Assembly (NCBI GenBank): GCA_964551015.1
Contig: CAZKBP010000003.1
Span: 149,327-213,326, forward strand
DNA: 64,000 bases
DNA from: an uncultured Cytophagaceae bacterium
GTDB lineage: Bacteria > Bacteroidota > Bacteroidia > Cytophagales > Microscillaceae
Direction: 5' to 3'
Shown here: piece by piece, positions 5,853-7,432 of the stretch
How positions within the stretch are numbered: position 1 is the stretch's first letter
Layout: each line of letters begins with the position of its first letter
Translations under genes and position numbers: made by a program
The notes under the pieces: generated by a model
Seen by the model: the letters and a program-made list of their open reading frames with translations, nothing else
Databases searched by the model: none
Told to the model about the DNA's origin: nothing

Positions 5853-7028
5853 TTAGACATTTTCGTGCTGAAATAAAGCTGGGAAGGTTCTCAAAATAAT
5901 TTTGAAATCCATCCAGAGTGAGTACTTCCTTGCGTATTCATTATCCAAAGCAATTCGCTCCTCGATCGACATTTCTGCTTTGCCCCGTTTGGAGACTTGC
6001 CATAAACCCGTTAAGCCAGCCGGAGCTAAGAACCTTTGTAAAGCCTCATCTGTGGTCAGTTGCTCGGCTTCATAGAGTGGGAGCGGGCGGTTCCCTACCA
6101 ATGACATATCTCCTTTGAAGATATTAATCAACTGAGGCAGTTCGTCTAGGCTGGTATTTCTCAGGAAAGCCCCCACTTTGGTAATCCGAGGATCATTTTT
6201 GAACTTGACAAAAGTGCTGCTATCGGCAGCGGCGATCTGCTTGTACATATACTCGCAGATCAAACGGCCGTCGTGATAAAGCAATGGCGAGCAATATTGA
6301 CCTTGTTCTTTACAGCGTTTGCATTGCTCGGCTCCGCTGGCCTTTTTGCTCGGTTGGTAGACATTCAAATGCTTGAGCTTGTCTACCATTTGATCGGCGT
6401 TTTGATACATCGTACGGAATTTGTAAAGCGGGAAAATCTGATAGCCCCTGCCCACCCGCTTGGAGGCATAAAGAACAGGGCCTTTAGATTCTAACCGAAT
6501 GAGTAAAGCTAGCAAAAGCATCACTGGAGATGCAATCAGCAAGGCGGTGGCGGAGGAGACAATATCAAACAGGCGTTTGGGCCAAGGAGTCCTAACCTTT
6601 TTCTGCATACGCTTAATTTGTAAGCGGCGGCGATTGCGCTTGAGCTTAATCAGGGTTTCAATACGAGGCTTAAGCTCTTTTGGCTCGAAGGGAGCTTGAT
6701 AAAAATCATTGACACCTCTGCGGCGTGCTTCTTCTTGGTGCTTTTCCAGACGTTCTTCACTGTAAATAATAAAGGGCAGGGCGGTAGGAGCAAGTTTTTC
6801 ACGGATTTTAGTCAAGTATTCCATCGTCGGACAGAAGGGGAAAAACATATCTGACAAAATCACATCAACCTGAAAATTGACCTCCTGCAACCACTGATAA
6901 GCCTCTTGCCAAAGTTCAAAGTGAACCAGCAAATACTGATCGCCCAGTTGCGCCTGCCAGCGGGTTTGCTCTTGGGGGCTTGGAGCTACCAAGAGTATTA
7001 TTTTCTTATCATGCCAAGTTGTTTCCAT
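5853..7028 (-). CDS. Bacterial sugar transferase (undecaprenyl-phosphate hexose-1-phosphate transferase, WbaP/EpsE family) with an N-terminal receiver-like domain
   Basis: The C-terminal 200 aa carry the PF02397-type motifs (KFRTM, DELPQLINIFKGDMSLVGNRP). The N-terminal 130 aa have a CheY fold with the Asp (VILSDMFFP), Ser (IIYSE) and Lys (KPF-like) residues. The DD pair is replaced by AP (LLVAPSPQE). Confidence 0.8.
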   Translation of the reverse strand: METTWHDKKIILLVAPSPQEQTRWQAQLGDQYLLVHFELWQEAYQWLQEVNFQVDVILSDMFFPFCPTMEYLTKIREKLAPTALPFIIYSEERLEKHQEEARRRGVNDFYQAPFEPKELKPRIETLIKLKRNRRRLQIKRMQKKVRTPWPKRLFDIVSSATALLIASPVMLLLALLIRLESKGPVLYASKRVGRGYQIFPLYKFRTMYQNADQMVDKLKHLNVYQPSKKASGAEQCKRCKEQGQYCSPLLYHDGRLICEYMYKQIAAADSSTFVKFKNDPRITKVGAFLRNTSLDELPQLINIFKGDMSLVGNRPLPLYEAEQLTTDEALQRFLAPAGLTGLWQVSKRGKAEMSIEERIALDNEYARKYSLWMDFKIILRTFPALFQHENV

Positions 7029-7057
7029 GAGTTTTTCTGGTTTAATCAGCCAAAGAT

Positions 7058-7432
7058 TTACACACTATAGGGCAATACTTTGTCAATGCGGATTTCTAGC
7101 TCCTCTGGGTTGAAGGGCTTGGTCAGATAGTCATCTGCTCCTAATTTGAAGCATTTGATCCGATCTTCGCTTTTATTTTTACCCGAGAGCATGATGAAAG
7201 GAATTCTTCGCAAAAAAGCACTGGAACGGATAGAAGAAAGCATTTCTATCCCACTTAGGCCGGGCATATTGATATCAGATATGATTACATCGGGGGTATT
7301 TCCCTCTTCTAACCAAGAGAGTGCCTCTAGGCCATCTTTCTTGGTGATTACTTGAAAACGCTCGCTGAGGTAACTTTCTAGGAAAACGAGCATCATTTCG
7401 TTGTCTTCTACGATTAAAACGGTAGGTTTCAT
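7058..7432 (-). CDS. Single-domain response regulator (CheY-like receiver)
   Basis: 124 aa with canonical motifs: VLIVEDNE, the phospho-acceptor in VIISDINMPG, LSG, and KPF. Confidence 0.85.
   Translation of the reverse strand: MKPTVLIVEDNEMMLVFLESYLSERFQVITKKDGLEALSWLEEGNTPDVIISDINMPGLSGIEMLSSIRSSAFLRRIPFIMLSGKNKSEDRIKCFKLGADDYLTKPFNPEELEIRIDKVLPYSV

Follow-up and report, generated by a model that had tools for sequence, protein, structure and literature searches.

A degenerate receiver domain fused to a small phosphoglycosyl transferase is paired with a canonical single-domain response regulator in polysaccharide loci of Bacteroidota

Gene content of the locus

A 64,000-nt stretch of DNA from an uncultured Cytophagaceae bacterium of the Bacteroidota (GenBank assembly GCA_964551015.1, contig CAZKBP010000003.1, positions 149,327 to 213,326 of the forward strand; hereafter the window) carries a polysaccharide locus in which a stand-alone receiver-domain protein (REC) is encoded directly upstream of a phosphoglycosyl transferase (PGT) that has a receiver-like N-terminus of its own. 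We found both open reading frames (ORFs) on the minus strand exactly where a first-pass annotation of the sequence had placed them, separated by 29 nt (Table 1). They belong to a tight string of minus-strand genes (236-9608) that runs from an LruC-domain lipoprotein through REC, the fusion, an OEP protein, a GNVR-type protein and a GT1 glycosyltransferase to a flippase, and the OEP gene starts 3 nt past the stop codon of the fusion. The string looks like a single operon for a Wzx/Wzy-type exported polysaccharide. Proteins identical to the 391-aa fusion and to the 124-aa REC are present in public assemblies.

Table 1. Genes and protein features of the locus, in window coordinates, with the basis of each assignment
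Feature	Position	Strand	Basis
Wzx-type flippase	236-1573	-	Pfam and NCBIfam
GT1 glycosyltransferase	1557-2735	-	Pfam and NCBIfam
GNVR/chain-length-type protein, 724 aa	2842-5016	-	Pfam and NCBIfam
Half-size TolC-like OEP	5091-5849	-	Pfam and NCBIfam
Fusion of pseudo-receiver and small monotopic PGT, 391 aa	5853-7028	-	ORF; Bac_transf 207.7 bits; sub-threshold Response_reg
Bac_transf catalytic domain of the fusion, aa 151-386	5871-6578	-	Pfam PF02397, 207.7 bits; PDB sequence matches WbaP, PglC
Four invariant Cys of the fusion, C236-x2-C239-x6-C246-x11-C258	6255-6323	-	Invariant in homologue alignment
Basic, juxtamembrane alpha5 extension into the re-entrant membrane helix of the fusion, aa 131-180, KRLFD...IASPVML	6489-6638	-	AlphaFold2; alignment
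Pseudo-receiver domain of the fusion, aa 8-130	6639-7007	-	BLASTP; profile alignment; MAFFT with CheY; AlphaFold2; Foldseek; per-column conservation
Stand-alone canonical single-domain response regulator (REC), 124 aa	7058-7432	-	ORF; Pfam Response_reg 97.3 bits
LruC-domain lipoprotein (DUF4114 + DUF4842), separating REC from the kinase genes	7548-9608	-	
FIST_N/FIST_C sensor-like protein	10327-11442	+	FIST 83.3 bits; FIST_C 75 bits
Hybrid histidine kinase, 1183 aa, PAS x3-HisKA-HATPase-REC-Hpt	11534-15085	+	Pfam

A receiver fold without receiver chemistry

The N-terminus of the fusion had been described as a CheY fold, and BLASTP, a REC-family profile, predicted topology and Foldseek all agree on this. 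The domain showed 28% identity to the neighbouring REC (BLASTP, E 2e-15). Scoring it against receiver profiles gave a divided result: a profile of 76 orthologous stand-alone RECs aligned with aa 8-130 from end to end at 51.1 bits, while Pfam Response_reg (PF00072) matched aa 36-123 only, at 25.3 bits, and did not reach its gathering cut-off of 30.2. The AlphaFold2 (AF2) model of the whole protein had a mean pLDDT of 82.4, with block means mostly around 90 in the receiver domain and two blocks at 76-79, and its secondary structure followed the (beta-alpha)5 order (strands at 9-14, 32-37, 56-60, 86-90 and 108-111; helices at 18-28, 40-49, 68-78, 95-103 and from 116 onwards). Foldseek matched the domain to the OmpR/PhoB-type receivers of ArcA, PhoP, PmrA, KdpE and YycF, with TM-scores of 0.83-0.89 and root-mean-square deviations of 1.6-2.4 Å. 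The N-terminus is clearly a receiver fold despite its sub-threshold Pfam score.

The residues at the five catalytic positions of this domain are A15, P16, D60, S90 and A112, of which two are retained. Replacement of the acidic pair by Ala-Pro, as the first-pass annotation had read it, was borne out by three independent alignments and by the ends of the AF2 strands at A15-P16 (codons at 6981-6986), which together rule out a shifted register with the acidic pair in fact present. The phospho-acceptor Asp (D60, codon at 6849-6851) and the Thr/Ser position (S90) are likewise kept as described. The Lys is not, although it had been listed as retained: BLASTP, MAFFT and the profile alignment all put Ala112 (codon at 6693-6695) in its place, with DFYQ-A112-PF in the fusion against DYLT-K-PF in REC. 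Receiver chemistry needs a metal bound by the DD residues, and T and K bind the phosphoryl oxygens (PMC12632262). Because DD1, DD2 and K are absent, the fused domain is unlikely to be phosphorylated. Judged by its residues, it is a pseudo-receiver by the definition of Bourret and co-workers (2025, PMC12632262), with three of the five positions gone, and this assignment stands on firmer ground than first claimed, since the Lys is missing as well as DD1 and DD2. It is not an Asp-less receiver (ALR), as Asp60 is kept.

Across the fused domains of related proteins, the hydrophobic core is conserved; variation is high in the active site and at most positions of the surface. Per-column conservation singled out two polar residues of the pseudo-receiver as conserved, D108 (87% D) and R122 (84% R), and no others. 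By a count made by hand, they line up with D101 and R115 of PhoB, a pair whose intermolecular salt bridge lies at the centre of the alpha4-beta5-alpha5 dimer. On the same hand-counted equivalence, the fusion and REC both have the central Asp/Arg pair, as D108/R122 and as D101/R115, respectively. The peripheral alpha4 Arg and alpha5 Glu positions are conserved in REC (K/R 96%, E 100%) and not in the pseudo-receiver. Two charged residues central to the alpha4-beta5-alpha5 interface have been described as absolutely conserved and as crucial for PhoB dimerisation (Gao et al. 2008, PMC2586830).

In the AF2 model, alpha5 of the pseudo-receiver is extended into a long helix (116-144), which runs on to the membrane helix at 149-180. 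We also considered a pseudo-receiver of the ShkA-like type that binds cyclic di-GMP (c-di-GMP) and rejected it: the domain has no conserved Arg-rich motif, and homologues do not share the basic residues that follow alpha5 in the window protein. The twofold higher score of the domain on the partner-REC profile than on the generic Pfam model (51 versus 25 bits) suggests that it descended from the same receiver lineage as REC, by duplication and degeneration.

A complete and constrained stand-alone receiver

The protein encoded upstream is an intact single-domain response regulator, as had been reported. All five of its active-site residues are present in the alignments (E9, D10, D53, S83 and K105), Pfam Response_reg matches it at 97.3 bits (Table 1) and its best NCBIfam match is PhoB-type. 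On the profile of 76 orthologous stand-alone RECs it scored 178.5 bits. It reached 70.9 bits against the NCBIfam model for EpsW (NF041866), where the cut-off is 200, and is not an EpsW orthologue.

The REC family is overall far better conserved than the fused domains. The motif KPFNPxEL is 100% conserved, and S95, R98, I99, K100, C101 and L102 of alpha4 are highly conserved; the most conserved surface is alpha4-beta5-alpha5, the usual output face of receivers. On this conservation, the partner REC is evidently under strong constraint.

Pairing of the two receivers in related loci

A protein word-index search returned at least 8000 candidates, all with E <= 1e-5. Hundreds of homologues of 380-410 aa were among them; nearly all of the best 120 were of this length, and most of these had both Pfam domains; the named sources of candidates were Bacteroidota, including Microscilla marina. 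In addition, a scan of species-representative genomes gave at least 80 loci, in which we read residues and gene order by tblastn with the window proteins and by ORF extraction. These came from Dyadobacter, Cyclobacterium, Flectobacillus, Emticicia, Sediminibacterium, Chitinophaga, Sphingobacterium, Lentimicrobiaceae, metagenome-assembled genomes (MAGs) of Flavobacteriales and others, together with one KSB1 MAG. The locus counts below are among the loci listed and read in this way, and the 73 fused genes are among those listed by the scan.

Loss of the catalytic residues was a property of the whole family of fused domains. Among 76 unique fused N-terminal domains, DD1 was acidic in 5, DD2 was acidic in 10, the phospho-acceptor Asp was present in 15 (with Glu in another 34), Ser or Thr in 35 and Lys in 9, whereas each of the five positions was intact in all 72 complete stand-alone RECs. 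Expressed per protein, 59 of the 76 fused domains kept at most one of the five residues, 75 lacked at least two and a single one had all five. The Asp retained in the window was itself absent from 61 of 76. The closest homologues do without it (P0003/L002 reads SRECS at the catalytic positions), and Microscilla reads NPAYD.

The position of the REC gene was nearly constant. REC orthologues with 40-54% identity lay immediately upstream of the PGT gene in 77/84 loci, and for 71 of the 73 fused genes the REC gene was immediately upstream on the same strand. One of the other two fused genes is at a contig end. The 73rd belongs to Emticicia aquatilis (L071, 9860-11014), where a canonical receiver with the residues DDDSK is fused to the PGT and there is no separate REC; this fused receiver shares 43% identity with the stand-alone REC of the window.

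We also found PGTs of the same clade that have no fused receiver at all. In three loci (L036, 9926-11107; L038, 1264-2394; L081, 1641-2782), a canonical REC is encoded directly upstream of an unfused PGT of 252-259 aa. Three others (L032, L053 and L076) have an unfused PGT without REC, and in L053 a hybrid kinase gene is directly upstream. Read by eye, a gene for a LytTR-type response regulator stands beside the REC/PGT pairs of L038 (429-1121) and L081 (839-1531) and also occurs in L076 (10860-11543). This regulator could be a separate layer of transcriptional control in loci with unfused PGTs.

Components of a predicted phosphorelay

The first-pass annotation had stated that the locus has no histidine kinase. 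This did not hold, as an 1183-aa hybrid kinase is encoded at 11534-15085. Its gene and that of a FIST-domain protein directly upstream of it are divergent from the operon, and the lipoprotein gene alone separates them from the REC gene. The kinase has H680 in an H-box (SHEIRTP), a canonical internal receiver and an Hpt motif (AHKLKSS), so that with the candidate terminal receiver at 7058-7432 the parts of a phosphorelay are all encoded. A hybrid kinase that ends in an Hpt domain leads one to expect a terminal receiver elsewhere, and the stand-alone REC is the obvious candidate; synteny backs this predicted pairing of Hpt and REC.

Orthologues of the hybrid kinase (31-39% identity over 500-760 residues, E 1e-96 to 1e-125) lay directly upstream of REC in 15/84 loci, and stand-alone Hpt genes were found upstream of REC in L057, L070 and L079. 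In Microscilla marina (L003), a FIST and hybrid kinase pair adjoins REC, the fusion and the OEP, PCP, GT1 and Wzx genes, and in Emticicia aquatilis a FIST and hybrid kinase pair is just downstream of the fused gene. The FIST protein is the likely input partner of the kinase. Pairs of the nitric oxide (NO) sensor NosP with a kinase are known, and by analogy with them it could feed the pathway by sensing a ligand. Its match to NosP was weak (42.4 bits, cut-off 450).

A small, PglC-like transferase

The catalytic domain of the fusion carries an Asp295-Glu296 dyad that is invariant among homologues. K151, R152, D155 and P168 are also invariant in the alignment and make up the KRxFD...SP signature of a re-entrant helix. 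AF2 showed one hydrophobic helix (aa 149-180) with a break at S167-P168 and no other membrane domain; taking the topology from the family, we infer that this helix is re-entrant and does not span the membrane. Foldseek matched the catalytic core to PglC with TM-scores of 0.80-0.83.

Assignment to the WbaP family, as in the first-pass annotation, was not upheld. We rejected a WbaP-type large monotopic PGT (monoPGT) on its soluble receiver-fold N-terminus, on the lack of a bundle of four transmembrane helices (4-TM) and of the DUF (a domain whose function is unknown) and on its NCBIfam scores, which missed the cut-offs for WbaP_sugtrans (224.7 versus 403), WcaJ (216.8 versus 410.75) and EpsZ (161 versus 800). 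The enzyme is a small, PglC-like monoPGT. In common with PglC of Campylobacter, the prototype of the small monoPGTs, it has the core fold, an Asp-Glu dyad and a Ser-Pro break in its re-entrant helix; it differs from PglC in the added N-terminal pseudo-receiver and in an insert of about 50 aa with four Cys.

This insert (aa ~219-268; 6225-6374, minus strand) is placed within the catalytic domain, with the KFRTM and DPRIT motifs on either side, and has no counterpart in WbaP and PglC (alignment gap 219-265). Its four-Cys motif was present in 73/84 loci, unfused relatives included. About 10 lineages keep the insert and have lost the Cys; these are mostly Flavobacteriales-type MAGs, together with the KSB1 MAG and Emticicia aquatilis. 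From its Cys spacing and conservation, the insert looks like a structural zinc site. A 2024 preprint on monoPGT annotation makes no mention of receivers, cysteines or zinc.

Other genes of the window

Genes for OEP and PCP-like proteins are syntenic 3' of the PGT in most related loci. In the window, both are unusual. The OEP protein (252 aa) has one OEP (TolC-like) repeat and stands in place of the expected Wza-type protein. The 724-aa GNVR-type protein has an EGKT P-loop-like motif in its C-terminal domain, with no Pfam kinase match and no Tyr-rich tail. Homologues of the LruC lipoprotein are also close to the module in L028, L040, L064 and L071. The 718-nt intergenic region between the FIST and LruC genes held no convincing ORF. 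Directly 3' of the hybrid kinase are malate synthase and isocitrate lyase genes of the glyoxylate shunt (15191-18302, plus strand), which are probably unrelated. Across the window, Rfam matched a single feature, a tRNA gene (23100-23183, minus strand).

Proposed control of the priming step

In the assessable loci, every degenerate fused copy is paired with a true REC, and the one fusion without a separate REC is the canonical one, as would be expected if the phosphorylatable REC and the PGT were one functional unit, with the pseudo-receiver as the interface of the PGT to REC. On comparative grounds, the Emticicia aquatilis fusion and the loci that join REC to an unfused PGT amount to Rosetta-stone evidence for cooperation between the two. 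Two-component control of the committed step, which had been suggested from the window, is well supported by these gene arrangements, as a canonical REC lies upstream of every pseudo-receiver fusion that can be assessed and the Rosetta-stone variants add to it. We put the probability at about 0.6 that the first committed step of polysaccharide synthesis is switched under the control of a phosphorelay encoded here, with the kinase pathway acting through REC on the PGT at the post-translational level.

In such a pathway, the hybrid kinase, whose activity the FIST protein may modulate, would pass phosphate from His to Asp to the His of Hpt and from there to Asp53 of the stand-alone REC. Phosphorylated REC (REC~P) may then bind the PGT and change its activity post-translationally, much as EpsW~P acts on EpsZ in Myxococcus. 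The fused pseudo-receiver would be the docking partner, itself not phosphorylated, in a REC:pseudo-REC heterodimer that probably forms on the alpha4-beta5-alpha5 face, and the signal would travel along the unbroken alpha5 helix and reach the catalytic domain at its re-entrant membrane helix. We propose this face because REC keeps the full OmpR/PhoB-like set of interface residues and the pseudo-receiver keeps the central D/R pair. The structural detail, a phosphorylation-dependent heterodimer on alpha4-beta5-alpha5 that is coupled through alpha5 to the catalytic domain, is tentative, and that a REC~P:pseudo-REC heterodimer on a monomeric membrane enzyme serves as a general switch of exopolysaccharide (EPS) priming in Bacteroidota is a shade more tentative again.

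Several observations weigh against a switch of this kind. Of the alpha4-beta5-alpha5 face, the pseudo-receiver conserves the central D/R pair alone; its alpha4 and the position equivalent to E111 of PhoB are variable, so that the interface need not be a symmetric one of the OmpR/PhoB type. Receivers in general also commonly have an Asp where D108 stands. The loci with REC and an unfused PGT imply that the pseudo-receiver is dispensable for the partnership, and REC might touch the catalytic domain. Small monoPGTs reportedly function as monomers, to which the dimer-promoting logic of EpsW and EpsZ need not apply (PMC12802240). Finally, a kinase is encoded within 10 kb in just 24/84 loci, and kinases are common in these genomes.

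Some of these points would be met by a pseudo-receiver that is a constitutive structural or oligomerisation module, either a homodimer or an anchor of the PGT, with REC~P acting on the catalytic domain or the linker. REC is paired with a pseudo-receiver-free PGT in L036, L038 and L081, the models of EpsW have it touching the catalytic domain of EpsZ (PMC12802240), many pseudo-receiver structures are dimeric without phosphorylation through parts of alpha4-beta5-alpha5 (PMC12632262), and D108 and R122 could equally serve a homodimer. We nevertheless consider a purely structural role unlikely: the perfect co-occurrence of pseudo-REC and separate REC in the assessable loci, set beside a canonical fusion that has no separate REC, suggests that the two are coupled, and the score of 51 bits on the partner-REC profile against 25 on Pfam is consistent with co-ancestry.

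Single-domain receivers are often phosphate sinks or connectors, so REC might not regulate the PGT at all and might instead be a sink or connector, or act on the PCP-like protein, the OEP or the flippase, with adjacency reflecting co-expression; the PCP-like and OEP genes are likewise syntenic. This is quite improbable given that the immediate downstream neighbour of REC is always the PGT and not one of those other genes, that the Emticicia aquatilis gene joins a canonical REC orthologue to the PGT and that the best-conserved surface of REC is the usual output face.

The retention of Asp60 and Ser90 suggests that in this organism the fused domain might still work as a receiver and take phosphate on Asp60, which would give the locus two phospho-acceptors. 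This is very improbable, with the metal-binding acidic residues and the Lys all missing and the Asp not under family-wide selection, as its absence from the closest homologues (SRECS, NPAYD) illustrates. The variable active site and surface would also suit a decaying relic of an ancestral REC-PGT fusion with no present function, but this is scarcely credible: more than 70 species of several Bacteroidota orders, plus the KSB1 MAG, keep the domain at full length, its core is conserved and its fold confidently predicted, and unfused relatives indicate that loss is possible but rare.

Comparison with known systems

In Myxococcus xanthus, the phosphorylated single-domain regulator EpsW has been shown experimentally to bind and activate the large monoPGT EpsZ (Schwabe et al., mBio 2025, PMC12802240). 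Receiver regulation of other monoPGTs was a matter of speculation there, with the remark that small monoPGTs are monomers and that the mechanism may differ (PMC12802240). The window resembles the EpsW/EpsZ system in that a phosphorylatable single-domain regulator is encoded with a Wzx/Wzy-type locus and a phosphorelay-type kinase; its action on the PGT is here predicted. Whereas EpsZ is large and dimeric, with a 4-TM bundle and a DUF and no receiver-like domain, the PGT of the window is small and PglC-like with a fused pseudo-receiver. The mechanism proposed for EpsW is stabilisation of the dimer through the DUF, which is absent from the PGT of the window. Moreover, EpsW and EpsZ are myxobacterial and the window system belongs to the Bacteroidota, with a REC that is not an EpsW equivalog.

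Pseudo-receiver proteins encoded together with a true receiver, as parts of two-component systems that are normal in other respects, have been described before, as CmrT with CmrR/CmrS in C. difficile and as WhiI with BldM in Streptomyces (PMC12632262). A heterodimer has been proposed for CmrT/CmrR and demonstrated for WhiI/BldM, in which an atypical regulator joins a phosphorylation-independent one (PMC12632262). Both systems consist of DNA-binding regulators, unlike the window system, which has a membrane enzyme as its output and a pairing conserved throughout the phylum. Receivers of the OmpR/PhoB family are the best structural match of the fused domain and, through the PhoB model, the best sequence match of REC; in contrast to that family, the window proteins have no DNA-binding domain, and the pseudo-receiver is without the peripheral salt-bridge and catalytic residues. 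The mechanisms by which bacterial pseudo-receivers are activated 'remain a mystery', and phosphorylation-dependent heterodimers of pseudo-receiver and receiver have been raised as a hypothesis (PMC12632262).

The architecture of the fusion has been recorded in two catalogues. Fusions of receiver domains to small monoPGTs were noted by O'Toole, Imperiali & Allen (PNAS 2021, as cited by PMC12802240), and the S6 table of the ALR census of Maule et al. (2015, PMC4395418) lists two Response_reg~Bac_transf proteins, from Chlorobi and Bacteroidetes, both Asp-less (2/2). As far as these partial sources go, the fusions have the same domain architecture as the window protein and are catalogue entries only. 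The accessible parts of the literature contain no description of family-wide loss of the catalytic quintet, an obligate canonical REC partner, linkage to a kinase or Hpt, or the series of architectures, and we found no literature on PF02397 and PF00072 together. The fusion architecture was already catalogued, and the obligate pairing of REC and pseudo-REC appears to be undescribed.

Implications for polysaccharide synthesis in Bacteroidota

How bacteria throttle the first step of polysaccharide synthesis, which consumes the lipid carrier, is largely unknown beyond transcription. The sole direct example of a receiver acting on a PGT dates from 2025 and concerns the large dimeric PGTs of myxobacteria, and the type of locus described here would extend such control to small monomeric PGTs and to the Bacteroidota. 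To our knowledge, this phylum is largely without c-di-GMP signalling. Genera that can be cultured, such as Dyadobacter, Cyclobacterium, Flectobacillus, Emticicia, Sediminibacterium and Chitinophaga, belong to the family, which offers a natural system for how bacterial pseudo-receivers are switched on and off, with the partner REC and a candidate kinase with an Hpt domain identified. The fused canonical receiver of L071 and the unfused PGTs of L036, L038 and L081 are its built-in natural controls.

If the proposed switch is correct, its history would run from separate REC and PGT through a REC-PGT fusion to REC with a pseudoREC-PGT fusion, by duplication and degeneration of the receiver. For the first time, a mechanism would be defined by which a bacterial pseudo-receiver is activated, and it would mean that the step which consumes undecaprenyl phosphate (Und-P) is under post-translational control in Bacteroidota.

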